Below are positions 1 to 7,901 of a stretch of DNA of 7,901 bases, piece after piece. Within the stretch, counting starts at the first letter, position 1. Every line of letters starts with the position of its first letter. The stretch is from a virus (Duplodnaviria; Heunggongvirae; Uroviricota; Caudoviricetes), in the IMG/VR virus record IMGVR_UViG_2740892258_000002, one strand, 5' to 3'. Both the position numbers and the translations under genes were made by a program. The notes beneath the pieces were generated by a model. The model was not told the origin of the DNA. It was given only the letters and a program-made list of their open reading frames with translations, and searched no databases.

Positions 1-1
1 T

Positions 2-1066
2 CAGCAGAAGCCGGTCTGGGCACTGTGCAATGACACGGCCTGTTCTGCAGCCATGCTGCTGGCGTCGGCCTGCTCCCGACGGCTGGTTACCCAGACATCC
101 CGTATCGGCTCCATTGGCGTGATGATGAGCCATGTCAGCTATGCCGGTCATCTGGCGCAGGCCGGTGTGGATATCACGCTGATTTACTCAGGGGCGCACA
201 AGGTGGATGGCAATCAGTTTGAAGCGTTGCCGGCAGAGGTTCGCCAGGACATGCAGCAGCGGATTGATGCGGCGCGCCGGATGTTTGCCGAAAAAGTGGC
301 GATGTTTACCGGTCTGTCTGTTGATGCAGTCACGGGAACAGAGGCCGCTGTTTTTGAAGGTCAGTCCGGCATTGAGGCCGGGCTGGCGGATGAATTAATC
401 AATGCGTCGGATGCCATCAGTGTGATGGCCACGGCGCTGAACAGTAATGTCAGAGGAGGCACTATGCCGCAATTAACTGCAACGGAAGCCGCCGCGCAGG
501 AGAACCAGCGAGTGATGGGGATCCTGACATGCCAGGAAGCGAAAGGACGTGAACAGCTTGCCACGATGCTGGCAGGACAACAGGGCATGAGCGTTGAACA
601 GGCCCGGGCGATTCTGGCCGCGGCGGCACCGCAGCAGCCGGTGGCATCCGCGCAGAGTGAAGCCGATCGCATTATGGCGTGTGAAGAAGCGAACGGTCGT
701 GAACAACTGGCGGCAACGCTGGCGGCGATGCCGGAGATGACGGTGGAAAAAGCCCGCCCGATCCTGGCGGCTGCACCACTGGCGGATGCCGGGCCCTCGC
801 TTCGTGATCAGATCATGGCCCTGGATGAGGCAAAAGGGGCAGAAGCGCAGGCTGAAAAACTGGCGGCCTGCCCGGGAATGACCGTGGAGAACGCCCGGGC
901 TGTGCTGGCTGCGGGATCAGGTAAGGCCGAACCGGTCTCTGCATCCACAACCGCCCTGTTTGAACATTTCATGGCGAATCATTCACCGGCAGCGGTGCGG
1001 GGTGGCGTGTCACAGACGTCAGCAGACGGTGATGCGGACGTGAAAATGCTCATGGCCATGCCATGA
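2..1066 (+). CDS. C: Head maturation protease / scaffold (lambda C/Nu3-like), 5'-partial; the frame is open from the window edge
   Basis: Frame 2 has no stop from position 2 to the TGA at 1064-1066. The N-terminal part (KPVWALCNDTACSAAMLLASACSRRLVTQTSRIGSIGVMMSH...GLADELINASDAI) resembles the C-terminal half of S49/ClpP-like prohead proteases such as lambda gpC (match from memory). It sits immediately upstream of the D/FI/FII/Z/U/V synteny. Confidence 0.85.
   Translation, partial: QQKPVWALCNDTACSAAMLLASACSRRLVTQTSRIGSIGVMMSHVSYAGHLAQAGVDITLIYSGAHKVDGNQFEALPAEVRQDMQQRIDAARRMFAEKVAMFTGLSVDAVTGTEAAVFEGQSGIEAGLADELINASDAISVMATALNSNVRGGTMPQLTATEAAAQENQRVMGILTCQEAKGREQLATMLAGQQGMSVEQARAILAAAAPQQPVASAQSEADRIMACEEANGREQLAATLAAMPEMTVEKARPILAAAPLADAGPSLRDQIMALDEAKGAEAQAEKLAACPGMTVENARAVLAAGSGKAEPVSASTTALFEHFMANHSPAAVRGGVSQTSADGDADVKMLMAMP
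464..1066 (+). CDS. Possible nested in-frame scaffold protein (Nu3-like) from an internal start
   Basis: In-frame ATG at 464 lies 5-6 nt downstream of a strong Shine-Dalgarno GAGGAGG (453-459). The downstream portion is Ala/Glu/Gln-rich and low-complexity, as expected for a scaffold. In lambda, Nu3 is the in-frame C-terminal product of the C reading frame (established knowledge). Confidence 0.45.
   Translation: MPQLTATEAAAQENQRVMGILTCQEAKGREQLATMLAGQQGMSVEQARAILAAAAPQQPVASAQSEADRIMACEEANGREQLAATLAAMPEMTVEKARPILAAAPLADAGPSLRDQIMALDEAKGAEAQAEKLAACPGMTVENARAVLAAGSGKAEPVSASTTALFEHFMANHSPAAVRGGVSQTSADGDADVKMLMAMP
512..916 (+). repeat. Three tandem in-frame copies of a roughly 47-52 aa scaffold motif inside the C/Nu3 ORF
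   Basis: Translated units begin near 512, 668 and 809: RVMGILTCQEAKGREQLATMLAGQQGMSVEQARAILAAAAP / RIMACEEANGREQLAATLAAMPEMTVEKARPILAAAP / QIMALDEAKGAEAQAEKLAACPGMTVENARAVLAAG. Conserved core is (I/V)M-x-[CL]-[QED]-EA-[KN]-G-x-E ... GM-x-VE-x-AR-x-[IV]-LAA, with spacing of about 156 and 141 nt. Confidence 0.7.
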
Positions 1067-1102
1067 AGTCAGTGCTGACCATCAATAGGAGGTTTTTACA
1101 AT

Positions 1103-1210
1103 ATGGTGACGAAAACCATCACTGAACAGCGTGCGGAAGTACGTATTTTTGCCGGTAATGATCCGGCTCATACCGCCACAGGCAGCAGCGGGATTTCACA
1201 GGTGAAATAA
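1103..1210 (+). pseudogene. D: Truncated head decoration gene (lambda D-like N-terminal remnant, 35 codons)
   Basis: RBS TAGGAGG (1086-1092) then ATG at 1103. Translation MVTKTITEQRAEVRIFAGNDPAHTATGSSGISQVK* carries the GN-DPAHTAT motif that I recall near the N-terminus of lambda gpD (110 aa), but stops after 35 codons. Only 196 nt separate the protease stop from the FI start, so a full D and E cannot fit. Confidence 0.55.
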
Positions 1211-1218
1211 TCCGTGAG

Positions 1219-1247
1219 CGGGGGCGAAATGCCCCCGTGTCTTTTTT
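1219..1247 (+). terminator. GC-rich hairpin followed by a T-run (intrinsic-terminator-like or RNA-stabilising stem-loop)
   Basis: Stem CGGGGGC (1219-1225) pairs with GCCCCCG (1231-1237) across loop GAAAT, followed by TGTCTTTTTT (T-run 1242-1247). It lies between the D remnant and the FI RBS. Confidence 0.5.
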
Positions 1248-1261
1248 CACAGGAGGCTGAG

Positions 1262-1645
1262 ATGGCAACAAAAGAAGAAAATCTGAATCGTCTTCGTCAA
1301 CTGGCTGACCTGCTGGGGCGCGAGGCGGATATGTCGGGGAGTGCTGCGGATATTGCTCAACGTGTGTCTGAGTGGGAAGAGGAGCTTGCTGTTTCCCCGG
1401 AGGGCATTATGCACTCTGATGAGAGCGGGGCTGATCAAAATCACACAGACGATGGTGAGCAGTTGAACAACACGGATGCTCCGGATGATGTTAAAGCCGT
1501 CCGGGTACGGAAGTGCCTGCAAGTAATGGGGTATTGCCCGGAGACAGGTCGTCCCGTTGAGCTGGCGTTACGGGGTATGCGTGTTCTGGTGCCATCATCA
1601 CTGGCAACGGCCATGATACAGCACGGAACGGCTGAATATGCGTGA
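1262..1645 (+). CDS. FI: FI-like DNA-packaging / head assembly protein
   Basis: RBS AGGAGG (1251-1256) then ATG at 1262; this is preferred over the ORF-track start at 1214, which would begin inside the hairpin. Acidic N-terminal half and position directly upstream of FII fit lambda FI. The stop overlaps the FII start by 8 nt (ATGCGTGA). Confidence 0.75.
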   Translation: MATKEENLNRLRQLADLLGREADMSGSAADIAQRVSEWEEELAVSPEGIMHSDESGADQNHTDDGEQLNNTDAPDDVKAVRVRKCLQVMGYCPETGRPVELALRGMRVLVPSSLATAMIQHGTAEYA

Positions 1646-1991
1646 TTTTCAGAATGCCTTTGATGCTGCCCTCGCCGGGGTAGACAGTACGATCGTTGAA
1701 GTGATGGGGCTCTGTGCGCAGTTCACCTCGGGGGCACAGTGTGGCAGCGAAGTTCAGGGGGTTTTTGATGATCCGGAGTCGCTGGGGTTTGCCGGTGGCG
1801 GGGTCCGTATTGAAGGAAGCAGCCCGTCATTATTTGTGCGGACGGATACGGTTCGTGCCGTGCGGCGTGGTGACACGCTGACCATTAATGGTGAGATATT
1901 CTGGGTGGATCGTGTTTCTCCGGATGACGGGGGCAGCTGTTATCTCTGGCTCAACCGTGGTCAACCACCCGCAGTTAACCGGCGACGATAA
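1638..1991 (+). CDS. FII: FII-like head-tail joining protein (117 aa)
   Basis: 117 aa, the same length as lambda gpFII. Motifs GVFDDPE, EGSSPSLFVRTD, RRGDTLTI, FWVDRVSPDDGGSC and PPAVNRRR match my recollection of gpFII. Translationally coupled to FI. Confidence 0.85.
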   Translation: MRDFQNAFDAALAGVDSTIVEVMGLCAQFTSGAQCGSEVQGVFDDPESLGFAGGGVRIEGSSPSLFVRTDTVRAVRRGDTLTINGEIFWVDRVSPDDGGSCYLWLNRGQPPAVNRRR

Positions 1992-2006
1992 ACGCAGGGT
2001 GAAATT

Positions 2007-2540
2007 ATGGCGATAAAAGGGCTTGATCAGGCGATTGACAATCTGAGCCGGGTTCGTAAAAACGCCATTCCGGCGGCTTCAGCAATGGCCATTAACCGCG
2101 TGGCCACAACGGCGATTAATCAGTCTTCATCACAGGTTGCCCGGGAGACAAAGGTTCGCCGGAAACTGGTTAAGGAACGGTCCAGACTGAAACGGGCGAC
2201 GGTCAGAAATCCGAATGCCAGAATTATCGTTAACCGCGGTGATCTCCCTGTGATTAAGCTGGGGATCAGGATGCTGGGGCGTCGCCCGAACAGCATACTT
2301 AAAGCCGGTCAGCATCGGTATCAGCGGGCATTTATTCAGAGATTAAAAAATGGTCGCTGGCATGTCATGCAGCGTGTGGCCGGGAAAAACCGTTACCCCA
2401 TTGATGTGGTGAAAATCCCGATGGCGGCCCCACTGAAACAGGCATTTGATGAGAATGTTGACCGTATCCGGCGTGAACGCCTGCCTAAAGAACTGGCATA
2501 CGCGCTGAAACAACAACTGAGGATTGCAATAAAACGATGA
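2007..2540 (+). CDS. Z: Z-like tail completion protein
   Basis: MAIKGLDQAIDNLSRV...QVARETKVRRKLVKERSRLKRATV...NGRWHVMQRVAGKNRYPIDVVKIPMA...RIRRERLPKEL matches recalled lambda gpZ. RBS AGGGTGA lies upstream. Stop overlaps the U start (ATGA at 2537-2540). Confidence 0.85.
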   Translation: MAIKGLDQAIDNLSRVRKNAIPAASAMAINRVATTAINQSSSQVARETKVRRKLVKERSRLKRATVRNPNARIIVNRGDLPVIKLGIRMLGRRPNSILKAGQHRYQRAFIQRLKNGRWHVMQRVAGKNRYPIDVVKIPMAAPLKQAFDENVDRIRRERLPKELAYALKQQLRIAIKR

Positions 2541-2932
2541 AACACACTGACATTCGTGCCGCAGTGCTGGATGCACTCGAGCAGCATGAACACGGGGCGA
2601 CGCTGTTTGATGGTCGCCCCGTTGTTTTTGACGAAGAGGATTTTCCTGCGATCGCGGTTTATCTGACGGATGCAGAGTATACCGGTGAAGAGCTGGATGC
2701 AGATACCTGGCGGGCCACGCTGCATATTGAGGTGTTTTTACCGGCACAGGTACCGGATTCAGAGCTTGATCAGTGGATGGAAAGCCGGATTTACCCGGCG
2801 ATGACCGCGATCCCGGCACTGGCAGGACTGATTACCACGATGGTTACGCAGGGCTATGAGTATCGTCGTGATGACGATATGGCGTTATGGAGTTCTGCAG
2901 ATCTGACTTATTCCATTACATACGAGATGTGA
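2537..2932 (+). CDS. U: U-like tail terminator protein (131 aa)
   Basis: 131 aa, as for lambda gp[18 protein letters not shown]...[17 protein letters not shown]...YRRDDD...[14 protein letters not shown] matches recalled gpU at roughly 80% identity. Confidence 0.9.
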
Positions 2933-2939
2933 GGACGAT

Positions 2940-3692
2940 ATGGCAACACCAAATCCCCTTGAGCCGGTAAAAGGTGCCGGTACCACTCTGTGGGTTTACA
3001 ACGGCAAGGGTGATGCTTATGCAAACCCGTTGTCAGACGATGACTGGCAGCGACTGGCTAAGGTGAAGGATCTGACGCCGGGCGAGATGACGGCAGAATC
3101 CTACGATGATAACTACCTGGATGATGAAGACGCGGACTGGACCGCGACCGGGCAGGGGCAGAAATCTGCAGGTGATACCAGTTTTACGCTGGCCTGGAAA
3201 CCGGGAGAGGAAGGCCAGAAAGGGCTTATAGGCTGGTTTGAAAGCGGCGATGTCCGGGCCTATAAAATCCGTTTTCCGAATGGCACGGTGGATGTGTTTC
3301 GTGGCTGGGTCAGCAGTATCGGTAAGGCCGTGACGGCGAAAGAAGTGATCACCCGCACGGTGAAAGTCACTAACGTGGGTAAACCTTCTGTAGCGGAAGA
3401 ACGCAGCAAAATTACGCCGGTCAGTGCGATTAAGGTGACGCCGACATCCGGTACGGTGGCAAAAGGGAAAACAACCACCCTGACGGTTTCTTTTGAGCCG
3501 GAAAGTGCAACCGACAAGACGTTCAGAGCGGTTTCCGCCGATCCGTCGAAAGCCACCATTAGTGTGAAAGATATGACAATTACGGTAAACGGCGTGGCGA
3601 CAGGTAAGGTGCAGATCCCTGTGGTGAGCGGAAATGGTCAGTTCGCCGCAGTGGCTGAAGTCACCGTTACTGAAGCGGGCGCTGCAGGGTAA
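2940..3692 (+). CDS. V: Major tail tube protein V, copy 1 (250 aa) with C-terminal Ig-like (Big_2-type) domain
   Basis: RBS GAGGACGAT then [15 protein letters not shown]...[55 protein letters not shown]...[41 protein letters not shown] matches lambda gpV. The C-terminal region shows the TLTV...FRAVSAD...ATGKV pattern typical of Big_2 domains. Confidence 0.9.
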
Positions 3693-3705
3693 ACGGAGGT
3701 AATAC

Positions 3706-4137
3706 ATGTTTCTGAAAACAGAACAATTTGAATATAACGGTGTGTCTGTCACGCTTTCCGAATTGTCTGCGCTGCAGCGTATCGAGCATCTTGCCCTCCT
3801 GAAACGGCGTGCAGAACAGGCAGAATCCTGCGGCAACCTGCAGGTAAGCGTGGAAGATCTCGTCAGAACCGGCGCGTTTCTGGTGGCGATGTCCCTGTGG
3901 CATAACCATCCACAGAAAACGCAGTCACCGTCAATGAATGAGGCCGTGATGAAGATAGAGCAGGAAGTGCTCACCACCTGGCCTGCCGATGCCATTGCCC
4001 GGGCGGAAGACGTGGTGTTGTGCCTGTCCGGGATGATCGAAGCTGTTCGTCCGGATACTGATATTACTGAAGTGGCGAAAAATAACACGCTGACTGATGA
4101 TGATTTTTCTGCGGGAAAGTCTTCGACGGCGAGCTGA
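3706..4137 (+). CDS. G: Tail assembly chaperone G, copy 1 (143 aa)
   Basis: RBS GGAGG then ATG at 3706. MFLKTEQFEYNGVSVTLSELSALQRIEHL...TGAFLVAMSLWHNHPQKT...MNEAV.KIEQEVLTTWP matches lambda gpG. Ends at TGA 4135-4137, 16 nt after the slippery site. Confidence 0.85.
   Translation: MFLKTEQFEYNGVSVTLSELSALQRIEHLALLKRRAEQAESCGNLQVSVEDLVRTGAFLVAMSLWHNHPQKTQSPSMNEAVMKIEQEVLTTWPADAIARAEDVVLCLSGMIEAVRPDTDITEVAKNNTLTDDDFSAGKSSTAS
4113..4119 (+). promoter_or_regulatory. Programmed -1 ribosomal frameshift slippery heptamer G GGA AAG (G to GT), copy 1
   Basis: GGGAAAG at 4113-4119 with GGA and AAG in the G zero frame (codon phase matches the 3706 start). The -1 frame is open from 4119 into the T ORF (VFDGELNFALRLAREMGRPDW...). 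This is the same heptamer and position as the classical lambda G/GT frameshift. Confidence 0.75.
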
Positions 4138-4577
4138 ACTTTGCCCTCAGACTGGCGCGTGAGATGGGGAGACCCGACTGGCGCGCCATGCTTGCCGGGA
4201 TGACATCCACCGAATATGCCGACTGGCACCGTTTTTACCGCACGCATTATTTTCAGGATACCCAGCTGGATATGCATTTTTCCGGGCTGACGTACGCTGT
4301 ACTCAGCCTGTTTTTTTGCGATCCGGATATGCATCCCTCTGATTTCAGTCTGCTTGTCCCCCGGCATGAGGAAGAGCAGGTGGAGAGGCCGGATGAGGAC
4401 AAAATGCTGATGCAGAAAGCGGCAGGACTTGCCGGAGGCGTCCGGTTCGGTGGGGACGGAGGGCGCGATATTTTATCGTCTGCGGATGTGGCGGATGTCA
4501 TGGTGGATGATGCCGCATTAATGATGGCTTCAGCGGGGATTCCGGGAGGTGTGAGATATGTCCCAGCCGGTTGGTGA
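4119..4577 (+). CDS. T: T-frame portion of the GT tail assembly chaperone fusion, copy 1 (expressed only by -1 frameshift from G, not from its own start)
   Basis: The -1 frame is continuous from the slippery site to TGA at 4575-4577. Conserved T motifs are present: GRPDWRAMLAGM.STEYADWHRFY.THYF, HFSGLTY.VLSLFF.DPDMHP, LMQKAAGLAGGVRFG. No RBS precedes the ATG at 4164. Confidence 0.75.
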   Translation, partial: VFDGELNFALRLAREMGRPDWRAMLAGMTSTEYADWHRFYRTHYFQDTQLDMHFSGLTYAVLSLFFCDPDMHPSDFSLLVPRHEEEQVERPDEDKMLMQKAAGLAGGVRFGGDGGRDILSSADVADVMVDDAALMMASAGIPGGVRYVPAGW

Positions 4578-4938
4578 TCTTGTTATTGACCTGAGTCTGG
4601 ATGCTGTCCGTTTCGATGAGCAGATGAGCCGGGTAAGGCGTCATTTTTCAGGTCTGGATACCGACGCCAGAAAAACCGCCAGTGCTGTTGAACAGGGCCT
4701 GAGCCGCCAGGCGCTGGCTGCACAAAAAGCCGGGATTTCCGTCGGGCAGTATAAAGCGGCCATGCGAACCCTGCCCGCACAGTTTACGGATATCGCCACG
4801 CAGCTTGCCGGTGGTCAGAATCCCTGGTTGATCCTGCTGCAACAGGGCGGTCAGGTGAAGGACTCCTTCGGCGGGATGATCCCCATGTTCAGGGGGCTTG
4901 CCGGTGCGATCACGGCCTGTGGAGTTCAGCCGATCTGA
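4558..4938 (+). pseudogene. H: Tape measure protein H, copy 1, truncated after 119 codons at a rearrangement junction
   Basis: The N-terminus (M.QPVGDLVIDLSLDAVRFDEQM.RVRRHFSG...QALAAQKAGISVGQYKAAMR.LPAQFTD.ATQLAGGQ.PWLILLQQGGQVKDSFGGMIPMFRGLAGAIT) is collinear with copy 2 through nt 4913. The frame then runs into unrelated sequence (ACGVQPI) and stops at 4938. Lambda H is about 853 aa. Confidence 0.8.
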
Positions 4939-4964
4939 CTTATGTCATTACCTATGAAATGTGA
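4914..4964 (+). pseudogene. U: Relic of the last 16 codons plus stop of a second U gene ([16 protein letters not shown])
   Basis: Nucleotides 4914-4964 align with 2881-2932, the 3' end of U copy 1, and translate in the U frame to [16 protein letters not shown]. The same spacer and RBS (TGAGGACGCTATG) precede V copy 2 as precede V copy 1. Confidence 0.65.
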
Positions 4965-4971
4965 GGACGCT

Positions 4972-5712
4972 ATGCCTGTACCAAATCCTGTAATGCCGGT
5001 GAAAGGTGCCGGGACCACCCTGTGGGTTTATAAGGGGAGCGGTGACCCTTATGCGAACCCGCTTTCAGACGTTGACTGGTCGCGTCTGGCAAAAGTTAAA
5101 GACCTGACGCCCGGCGAACTGACCGCTGAGTCCTATGACGACAGCTATCTCGATGATGAAGATGCAGACTGGACTGCGACCGGGCAGGGGCAGAAATCTG
5201 CCGGAGATACCAGCTTCACGCTGGCGTGGATGCCCGGAGAGCAGGGGCAGCAGGCGCTGCTGGCGTGGTTTAATGAAGGTGATACCCGTGCCTATAAAAT
5301 CCGCTTCCCGAACGGCACGGTCGATGTGTTCCGTGGCTGGGTCAGCAGTATCGGTAAGGCGGTGACGGCGAAGGAAGCGATTACCCGCACGGTGAAGGTC
5401 ACCAATGTGGGACGTCCGTCGATGGCAGAAGATCGCAGCACGGTGACGGCGACGACCGGCATGACGGTGACACCCGCCAGTGCTTCCGTAGTGAAAGGGC
5501 AGAGCACCACGCTGACCGTGGCATTCCAGCCGGATGGCGCAACCGACAAGAGCTTCCGTGCGGTGTCTGCGGATAAAACAAAAGCCACCGTGTCGGTCAG
5601 TGGTATGACCATCACCGTGAAAGGTGTTGCTGCAGGCAAGGTCAACATTCCGGTCGTATCCGGTAATGGTGAGTTTGCTGCGGTTGCAGAAATCAACGTC
5701 ACCGCCAGTTAA
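4972..5712 (+). CDS. V: Major tail tube protein V, copy 2 (246 aa), lambda-type
   Basis: RBS GAGGACGCT then ATG at 4972. The ORF-track start at 4942 would read through the U relic and is rejected. [135 protein letters not shown] matches my recollection of lambda gpV almost residue for residue, and 246 aa is the lambda gpV length. Confidence 0.9.
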
Positions 5713-5727
5713 TCCGGAGAGTCAGCG

Positions 5728-6150
5728 ATGTTCCTGAAAACCGAATCATTTGAACATAACGGTGTGACCGTCACGCTTTCTGAACTGTCAGCCCTGCAGC
5801 GTATTGAGCATCTCGACCTGATGAAACGGCAGGCAGAACAGGCGGAGTCAGACAGCAACCGGAAGTTTACTGTGGAAGACGCCATCAGAACCGGCGCGTT
5901 TCTGGTGGCGATGTCCCTGTGGCATAACCATCCGAAGAAGACAAAGCTGCCTTCCATGAATGAAGCCGTTAAACAGATTGAGCAGGAAGTGCTTACCACC
6001 TGGCCCACGGAGGCAATTGCTCAGGCTGAAAACGTGGTGTACCGGCTGTCCGGTATGTATGAGTTTGTGGTGAATGATGCTCCTGAACAGGCAGAGGACG
6101 CCGGGCCTGCAGAGCCTGTTTCTGCGGGAAAGTGTTCGATGGTGAGCTGA
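5728..6150 (+). CDS. G: Tail assembly chaperone G, copy 2 (140 aa), lambda-type
   Basis: MFLKTESFEHNGVTVTLSELSALQRIEHLDLMKRQAEQAESDSNRKFTVEDAIRTGAFLVAMSLWHNHP...SAGKCSMVS; 140 aa as for lambda gpG. Paralogous to 3706-4137 at an estimated 75% amino-acid identity. Confidence 0.9.
   Translation: MFLKTESFEHNGVTVTLSELSALQRIEHLDLMKRQAEQAESDSNRKFTVEDAIRTGAFLVAMSLWHNHPKKTKLPSMNEAVKQIEQEVLTTWPTEAIAQAENVVYRLSGMYEFVVNDAPEQAEDAGPAEPVSAGKCSMVS
6126..6132 (+). promoter_or_regulatory. Programmed -1 ribosomal frameshift slippery heptamer G GGA AAG (G to GT), copy 2
   Basis: GGGAAAG at 6126-6132 in the correct phase relative to the G copy 2 start at 5728. The -1 frame is open from 6132 to TGA at 6564-6566. 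Confidence 0.8.
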
Positions 6151-6566
6151 GTTTTGCCCTGAAACTGGCGCGTGAGATGGGGCGACCCGACTGGCGTGCC
6201 ATGCTTGCCGGGATGTCATCCACGGAGTATGCCGACTGGCACCGCTTTTACAGTACCCATTATTTTCATGATGTTCTGCTGGATATGCACTTTTCCGGGC
6301 TGACGTACACCGTGCTCAGCCTGTTTTTCAGCGATCCGGATATGCATCCGCTGGATTTCAGTCTGCTGAACCGGCGCGAGGCTGACGAAGAGCCTGAAGA
6401 TGATGTGCTGATGCAGAAAGCGGCAGGGCTTGCCGGAGGTGTCCGCTTTGGCCCGGACGGGAATGAAGTTATCCCCGCTTCCCCGGATGTGGCGGACATG
6501 ACGGAGGATGACGTAATGCTGATGACAGTATCAGAAGGGATCGCAGGAGGAGTCCGGTATGGCTGA
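6132..6566 (+). CDS. T: T-frame portion of the GT tail assembly chaperone fusion, copy 2 (via -1 frameshift)
   Basis: VFDGELSFALKLAREMGRPDWRAMLAGMSSTEYADWHRFYSTHYFHDVLLDMHFSGLTYTVLSLFFSDPDMHP...LMQKAAGLAGGVRFG...GGVRYG matches my recollection of the lambda gpT segment. There is no independent RBS; the GTG at 6132 is not a real start. Confidence 0.8.
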   Translation: MFDGELSFALKLAREMGRPDWRAMLAGMSSTEYADWHRFYSTHYFHDVLLDMHFSGLTYTVLSLFFSDPDMHPLDFSLLNRREADEEPEDDVLMQKAAGLAGGVRFGPDGNEVIPASPDVADMTEDDVMLMTVSEGIAGGVRYG

Positions 6567-7901
6567 ACCGGTAGGCGATCTGGTCGTTGATTTAAGTCTG
6601 GATACGGCCAGATTTGACGAGCAGATGGCCAGAGTCAGGCGTCATTTTTCCGGTACGGAAAGTGATGCGAAAAAAACAGCGGCAGTCGTTGAACAGTCGC
6701 TGAGCCGACAGGCGCTGGCTGCACAGAAAGCGGGGATTTCCGTCGGGCAGTATAAAGCCGCCATGCGTATGCTGCCTGCACAGTTCACCGACGTGGCCAC
6801 GCAGCTTGCAGGCGGGCAAAGTCCGTGGCTGATCCTGCTGCAACAGGGTGGTCAGGTTAAGGACTCCTTCGGCGGGATGATCCCCATGTTCAGGGGGCTT
6901 GCCGGTGCGATCACCCTGCCGATGGTGGGGGCCACCTCGCTGGCGGTGGCGACCGGTGCGCTGGCGTATGCCTGGTATCAGGGCAACTCAACCCTGTCCG
7001 ATTTCAACAAAACGCTGGTCCTTTCCGGCAATCAGTCGGGACTGACGGCAGATCGTATTCTGGCCCTGTCCAGAGCCGGGCAGGCGGCAGGGCTGACGTT
7101 TAACCAGACCAGCGAGTCACTGACGGCGCTGGTGAATGCCGGTGTGCGTGGTGGTGAGCAGTTTGAGGCGATCAGCCAGAGTGTGGCGCGTTTCTCCTCT
7201 GCATCCGGCGTGGAGGTGGACAAGGTCGCTGAAGCCTTCGGGAAGCTGACCACAGACCCGACGTCGGGACTGACAGCGATGGCACGTCAGTTCCATAACG
7301 TGACGGCGGAGCAGATTGCGTATGTTGCTCAGTTGCAGCGTTCCGGAGATGAAGCCGGGGCATTGCAGGCGGCGAACGAGGCCGCAACGAAAGGGTTTGA
7401 TGACCAGACCCGCCGCCTGAAAGAGAACATGGGCACGCTGGAGACCTGGGCAGACAGGACAGCACGGGCATTCAAATCCATGTGGGATTCGGTGCTGGAT
7501 ATTGGTCGCCCGGACACTGCCCAGGGAATGCTGGAGAAAGCAGAAAAGGCTTTTGATGAGGCGGACAAAAAATGGCAGTGGTATCAGAGCCGGAGCCACC
7601 GGCGCGGTAAAACCTCAGCATTTCTTGCCAATCTCCGGGGAGCATGGGAGGACAGAGCGAATGCGCAACTTGGACTTTCAGCCGCCACGTTGCAGGCCGA
7701 TCTTGAAAAGGCCAGAGAGATGGCAGCAAAGGACTGGGCCGAGTCTGAGGCATCACGGCTGAAATATACCGAAGAGGCGCAGAAGGCTTACGAACGCCTG
7801 CAGACGCCGCTGGAGAAATATACCGCCCGTCAGGAAGAACTGAATAAGGCACTGAAAGACGGGAAAATCCTGCAGGCAGATTACAACACGCTGATGGCGG
7901 C
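6559..7901 (+). CDS. H: Tape measure protein H, copy 2, 3'-partial (continues past the window end), lambda-type
   Basis: ATG at 6559 overlaps the T stop by 8 nt. The frame stays open to the window end (447 codons) and is absent from the ORF track only because it has no stop. MAEPVGDLVVDLSLD.ARFDEQMARVRRHFSGTESDAKKTAAVVEQSLSRQALAAQKAGISVGQYKAAMRMLPAQFTDVATQLAGGQSPWLILLQQGGQVKDSFGGMIPMFRGLAGAITLPMVGATSLAVATGALAYAWYQGNSTLSDFNKTLVLSGNQ...RLKYTEEAQKAYERLQTPLEKYTARQEELNKALKDGKILQADYNTLMAA matches recalled lambda gpH. Confidence 0.9.
   Translation, partial: MAEPVGDLVVDLSLDTARFDEQMARVRRHFSGTESDAKKTAAVVEQSLSRQALAAQKAGISVGQYKAAMRMLPAQFTDVATQLAGGQSPWLILLQQGGQVKDSFGGMIPMFRGLAGAITLPMVGATSLAVATGALAYAWYQGNSTLSDFNKTLVLSGNQSGLTADRILALSRAGQAAGLTFNQTSESLTALVNAGVRGGEQFEAISQSVARFSSASGVEVDKVAEAFGKLTTDPTSGLTAMARQFHNVTAEQIAYVAQLQRSGDEAGALQAANEAATKGFDDQTRRLKENMGTLETWADRTARAFKSMWDSVLDIGRPDTAQGMLEKAEKAFDEADKKWQWYQSRSHRRGKTSAFLANLRGAWEDRANAQLGLSAATLQADLEKAREMAAKDWAESEASRLKYTEEAQKAYERLQTPLEKYTARQEELNKALKDGKILQADYNTLMA

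Follow-up and report, generated by a model that had tools for sequence, protein, structure and literature searches.

Three Tri-box units in the scaffold part of a phage-21-type head protease gene of an Escherichia coli prophage

The window, which is the whole 7,901-nucleotide stretch of DNA analysed here (IMG/VR record IMGVR_UViG_2740892258_000002), covers the head-to-tail region of a lambdoid prophage of E. coli, and the three consecutive units found in the scaffold part of its gene-5-like open reading frame are very probably the Tri boxes previously annotated in gp5/gp6 of phage 21. With the same high confidence, as part of one explanation, this single reading frame is predicted to yield both an S49 prohead protease and, from an internal start at position 464, a scaffold protein of 200 amino acids. 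The triple repeat is already known; it is an ordinary feature and not a new one. As it stands, the finding rediscovers a repeat that has stood in the annotation of phage 21 for three decades and matters little; a small interest remains in the natural variation of the repeat among relatives, described below.

The gene-5-like frame (2..1066, + strand; 354 codons and a stop) encodes an S49 head maturation protease fused to a scaffold, with lambda C and phage 21 gp5 as homologues. It represents the C-terminal 354 amino acids of its product; the 5' end lies off the window, and the frame is entered at gp5 residue 148. The C-terminal two thirds of a Peptidase_S49 domain (Pfam PF01343, E=3.3e-34, amino acids 1-146) occupy 2..439 (+), ahead of the scaffold part and in frame with it, and the window protein matches the PHROG family of head maturation proteases (phrog_53, E=6e-155). 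An intact relative is the 501-amino-acid protein of the E. coli ATCC 11775 prophage, which differs at two amino acids from the part present in the window and is encoded in the gene order portal, 501-amino-acid protein, decoration, capsid, FI, FII, Z, U, V, G, T, H; the portal gene lies upstream of the protease gene in relatives. The candidate nested in-frame scaffold gene (464..1066, +; 200 amino acids) begins at the ATG equivalent to that of gene 6 in GenBank record M81255.1, and a Shine-Dalgarno motif, GAGGAGG, read from the sequence at 453..459 (+), occupies the site equivalent to the ribosome-binding site of gene 6 in the same record.

The repeat consists of unit 1 (RVMGILTCQEAKGREQLATMLAGQQGMSVEQARAILAA; 509..622, +), unit 2 (RIMACEEANGREQLAATLAAMPEMTVEKARPILAA; 668..772, +) and unit 3 (QIMALDEAKGAEAQAEKLAACPGMTVENARAVLAA; 809..913, +), which are paralogous, about 40 amino acids long each, and separated by Ala-, Pro- and Gln-rich linkers, namely linker 1 (AAPQQPVASAQSEAD; 623..667, +) between units 1 and 2 and linker 2 (APLADAGPSLRD; 773..808, +) between units 2 and 3. 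Pairwise local alignments of the units score 81-99, compared with 20-23 +/- 4-5 for residue shuffles (z = 13-19); the observed score was reached in 0/2000 composition-preserving shuffles, and 16 alignment columns are invariant across the three units. A hidden Markov model (HMM) of the unit has three matches in the window protein and matches each unit of phage 21 gp5 with E ~1e-27. Unit 3 is the most diverged and has GAE in place of the family's nearly invariant GRE. These values bear out the preliminary description, which had reported three consecutive units with Ala/Pro/Gln-rich linkers in a C/Nu3-type frame and had proposed self-alignment of the product, in which the internal repeats are significant; its statement that lambda C/Nu3 carries the motif once is also correct, since a single unit (RIMGILNCEEAHGREEQARVLAETPGMTVKTARRILAAAP) occupies C residues 356-399 of lambda (J02459). 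At the DNA level, Tandem Repeats Finder detected no array with the period of the unit, and only 15-nt seeds recur; the DNA copies have diverged and the repeat is visible only in protein, so it is an old protein-level repeat and not a recent duplication. The probability that the similarity of the units is a chance or low-complexity effect is practically nil: the region is Ala-rich and has no tandem repeat in its DNA, but the shuffle test, which preserves composition, refutes this reading, and the strength of the HMM match to each unit and the conservation of the unit in 457 clusters also speak against it. Neither Pfam nor NCBIfam has a model covering the Tri-box unit.

The identification with phage 21 follows from several comparisons. 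A tblastn search of window positions 473-1066 against phage records found Escherichia phage 21 (95.4%) and about 20 other lambdoid phages, and the predicted scaffold product is identical to phage 21 gp6 at 191 of 200 amino acids (95.5%), with nine substitutions. GenBank M81255.1 ("Bacteriophage 21 head gene operon"), which we take to be the record of Smith and Feiss (1993, Gene 126:1-7), marks three stretches within genes 5/6 as repeat_region features ("Tri1 box", "Tri box" and "Tri3 box", with the note "function unknown; putative"), and also annotates the nested gene 6 with its own ribosome-binding site. The Tri1 box maps to window 531-634 (unit 1), the Tri box to 671-781 (unit 2) and the Tri3 box to 812-925 (unit 3). 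No text on the Tri boxes came up when the literature was searched for the original phage 21 paper and for studies of gpNu3. The preliminary description was right in placing three tandem units in a C/Nu3-like frame where lambda has one; its view of them as an unusual expansion is not supported, three units being normal for the phage-21-type head module.

Of the decoration and E-type capsid genes, which lie directly downstream of the protease gene and are intact in the ATCC 11775 prophage and other relatives, the first is cut short in the window and the second is absent. In the remnant of the head decoration gene (shp/D; 1103..1209, +), codons 1-31 run in frame into the last four capsid codons and the stop codon (MVTK...GISQVK*) at a deletion junction between 1197 and 1198. 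Compared to the ATCC 11775 prophage, window positions 1-1197 are 99.4% identical and positions 1198-4913 are 100% identical, and 1326 bp are absent between them. No microhomology was found at the breakpoints (1197/1198), and the junction is contiguous in 0/5426 complete E. coli genomes. The missing capsid gene is a private in-frame deletion of these 1326 bp, unrelated to the repeats, and is a matter of decay of the element, not of a different family. The preliminary description had thought it odd to find the repeats in an element lacking its capsid gene, an oddity that vanishes with a separate deletion and an intact capsid gene in the near-identical prophage of ATCC 11775. Because the capsid gene has been deleted, the protease/scaffold gene is a relic in this element. 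The head module resumes normally after the deletion, with a gene for an FI-like DNA-packaging protein (1262..1645, +; phrog_92, E=1e-46; 100% identical to L002).

Other signs of decay or rearrangement were observed in the window and in a relative. The tape-measure (H-like) gene breaks off after some 119 codons (4913-4920). Next come GGCCTG, the 3' end of a U gene and then another V-G-T-H tail module (4920-6914), which is only 77-80% identical to the first (2888-4913). The junction at 4913-4920 is absent from complete E. coli genomes, and thus is presumably either a private rearrangement or an assembly chimera. A lambda-type slippery heptamer, GGGAAAG, is located near the end of both G-like chaperone genes (4113-4119 and 6126-6132), as expected for a predicted programmed G/GT frameshift. 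Another decayed copy of the locus, in E. coli BEC1-S17-ESBL-09 (L001:6562-8507), has a frameshifted S49 gene, an IS200C element in gene U, and a 405-nt decoration gene that runs straight into FI with no capsid gene; this capsid-gene loss is independent of that in the window.

Genes with three units are widespread. By megablast, at least 80% of window positions 1-1300 is present in 1864 of 5426 complete E. coli genomes, at a median of two places per genome, and a 111-nt probe across intact unit 2 is present in 1808 of the 5426, so that roughly one in three complete E. coli genomes carries the three-unit gene. Homologous places in the 5426 genomes number about 5196. Three units are also present in the isolated phages 21, ev017, 4A7, D2, 1W, 3W, the PhiR series and Gifsy-1, and all of the isolated phages that were found have three. 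The unit-bearing protease is located in head modules of the order Nu1-A-W-portal-C-D-E, and the units are conserved there. In a unit-by-unit score matrix, each window unit scores best with the unit at the same position in P0121 and in the prohead protease of the Salmonella phage Gifsy-1, which has three units, and window unit 1 also scores best with unit 1 of P0122. The best scores at the same position imply that the units have not been homogenised since the lineages split, and the position-by-position match with Gifsy-1 implies that the triplication predates the split between phage-21-like and Gifsy-1-like lineages. The single unit of lambda is closest to unit 1 (score 124, versus 106 for unit 2 and 78 for unit 3), and unit 1 is in all likelihood its counterpart. 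Units 2 and 3 would then have been added between unit 1 and the conserved C-terminal tail before the lineages split.

When 1.84 billion representative proteins were searched with a profile built from the three units (threshold E <= 1e-3), the 457 clusters mentioned above were matched. Among the matches listed, 55 representatives are at least 350 amino acids long, and 54 of these have one unit while one has three; outside the phage-21/Gifsy-1 clade, a single unit is the rule. In the single-unit relatives the unit lies at a constant distance from the C terminus (median 52 residues). A search for homologues of lambda Nu3 returned mostly fragments. A metagenomic protein of 198 amino acids from another lineage (P0145, L006:21-617) has two tandem units (ERRRFARIIGTPEAAGREQLA... 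and ERNRLAAITSLPEAKGREGLA...), which suggests an independent duplication. P0145 is encoded on a contig of 897 bp and P0222, a stand-alone single-unit protein, on a contig of about 1 kb, neither of which offers gene context.

The number of units also varies among close relatives of the window protein. When units were counted with the unit HMM over the 120 closest protein clusters, 25 clusters (435-452 amino acids) had two units, 92 clusters (mostly 482-501 amino acids) had three, two clusters (551 amino acids) had four, and one cluster (657 amino acids) had about six. The alignment shows that all these differences arose in register: the 451-amino-acid allele contains a hybrid of units 1 and 2; the 452-amino-acid allele has cleanly lost unit 2; the 482-amino-acid allele, with about 2.5 units, has a 19-amino-acid deletion inside unit 2; and the 551-amino-acid allele carries an additional unit that is a hybrid of 2 and 3. 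The 482-amino-acid allele is very abundant (3592 index blocks), and its head module looks intact, as does that of the 451-amino-acid allele; an O157:H7 example of the 452-amino-acid allele adjoins a truncated capsid gene. Loci of these alleles in relatives are L010:3001-4449, L011:3001-4356 and L012:3001-4359, which carry about 2.5 units (482 amino acids) or two units (451/452 amino acids). Since alleles with two and about 2.5 units are found in head modules that look intact, three units may not be required. The natural alleles of two to four units, of a unit whose function is putative and for which there is no curated domain model, could serve to ask what such units do in lambda-type scaffolds.

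The structure of the scaffold part was predicted by AlphaFold with an alignment of 123 sequences (mean pLDDT 70.4, pTM 0.29); this run was used instead of a single-sequence run (pLDDT 63.5) that fused the first two helices of each unit. Three short helices are predicted per unit, with pLDDT reaching 80-89 in the first two units and about 75 in the third, and confidence is low in the linkers (in linker 1, at scaffold residues 58-60) and in the last 45 or so residues. The C-terminal tail of 50 amino acids (914..1063, +) is predicted to form one helix (TTALFEHFMANHS) followed by a disordered end. The model, which is of moderate confidence, suggests small three-helix modules on flexible linkers rather than one packed domain. 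A PDB sequence search gave a best E of 0.24, to the Lac repressor, which is spurious, and a Foldseek search against PDB gave nothing significant (best E=2.3), with a flexible query model that makes it a weak test. On the question, raised in the preliminary description, whether each unit forms a helix-turn-helix like those of scaffold capsid-binding domains, the prediction gives a module of three helices per unit, and a match to the scaffold helix-turn-helix did not emerge from this weak test.

Protease and scaffold share the stretch of the frame in which the units are located. Two-hybrid tests and earlier work show interactions of lambda Nu3 with itself and with both C and E (PMC3224144), and the helix-turn-helix of P22 gp8 and phi29 gp7 provides a model for a short helical element that binds capsid protein (PMC11922011). 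The preferred reading, which we infer tentatively and hold to be plausible, if somewhat short of probable, is that the module plus the tail may be a shared address that targets the protease and the scaffold to the capsid shell. This address would bring both proteins into the assembling E-type shell by contact with the capsid protein, by self-association of the scaffold, or by both. In the phage 21 lineage, three modules would replace the long Ser/Thr/Ala-rich linker of Nu3, so that the scaffold protein keeps the same length, and head size would be expected to remain unchanged. Points against this reading are the intact-looking modules of alleles with two and about 2.5 units, the loss from unit 3 of the nearly invariant Arg of GRE, the PDB and Foldseek searches without a significant match, and the moderate confidence of the structural model. 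A tentative and, taken as a whole, rather doubtful extension is that the Tri-box module is a targeting element for E-type capsid shells whose copy number (2, ~2.5, 3, 4) varies naturally through in-register recombination; if this were true, E. coli prophages would hold an allelic series for the effects of scaffold valency on prohead assembly.

Among the alternatives, the units may be self-association (oligomerisation) modules of the scaffold that do not bind the capsid, in which case three units would raise scaffold-scaffold valency. This is possible, on the unlikely side: lambda Nu3 forms dimers or multimers and interacts with C, which has the same C-terminal sequence (PMC3224144), and the units are predicted amphipathic helical modules, but AlphaFold does not pack the three units together, as the pTM of its model reflects. 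A second alternative, that only unit 1 and the tail are functional while units 2 and 3 mostly serve as dispensable filler, a structured spacer holding the scaffold at about 200 amino acids once the internal start had moved downstream, is unlikely. It draws on the nearly equal lengths of phage 21 gp6 (200 amino acids) and lambda Nu3 (201 amino acids) despite a start 63 codons further downstream, on the abundance of alleles in which unit 2 is missing or truncated in intact modules, and on the loss of the conserved Arg from unit 3; with alleles of two and about 2.5 units in intact-looking modules, a spacer role fits as well as a binding role. Against it, units 2 and 3 keep 16 positions invariant with unit 1, and E. 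coli and Salmonella phages share them position by position at an overall identity of about 56%, which argues for selection on each unit. The suggestion of the preliminary description that the expansion changes procapsid size or scaffold stoichiometry is very improbable and unsupported, in that nothing was found in its favour beyond the difference in copy number itself, whereas the capsid protein gp7 (342 amino acids) is 62% identical to lambda E (341 amino acids), the genomes of three-unit phages (42.9-54.4 kb) are of the size of lambda's (48.5 kb), and the scaffold is only one residue shorter than Nu3.

The reading of the module and tail as a shared address can be set beside the known systems to which the window was compared. 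The closest is phage 21 gp5/gp6, which is the same gene with three units at equal positions, the same nested start and ribosome-binding site, and flanking shp and FI genes that match those of the window; the window differs in its truncated shp gene downstream and in the deletion of the capsid gene. The Gifsy-1 prohead protease (STM2605; 498 amino acids), a homologue of lambda gpC, likewise has three units, which follow the same order and correspond one by one to those of the window, and differs in that its scaffold part has about 56% identity to that of the window. Lambda C/Nu3 shares with the window a homologous S49 protease whose C-terminal scaffold part is read in frame with it, the motif of the unit, the order of head genes and a C-terminal tail of similar pattern. 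Lambda differs in having a single unit, which follows a Ser/Thr/Ala-rich linker of about 55 amino acids, where the window has three, and in the position of the internal start: the start of Nu3 is C residue 239, within the protease domain, and that of gp6 is gp5 residue 302; the residue equivalent to the Nu3 start is Ile in the window and the internal start predicted there is 63 codons further downstream. P22 gp8 and phi29 gp7 share with the predicted structure of the window protein the presence of helical modules within a scaffold that exits the procapsid, and differ in showing no sequence or fold match to the units; the P22 element is present as a single copy at the extreme C terminus, whereas the units of the window are internal, present in three copies, and followed by a tail of 50 amino acids.
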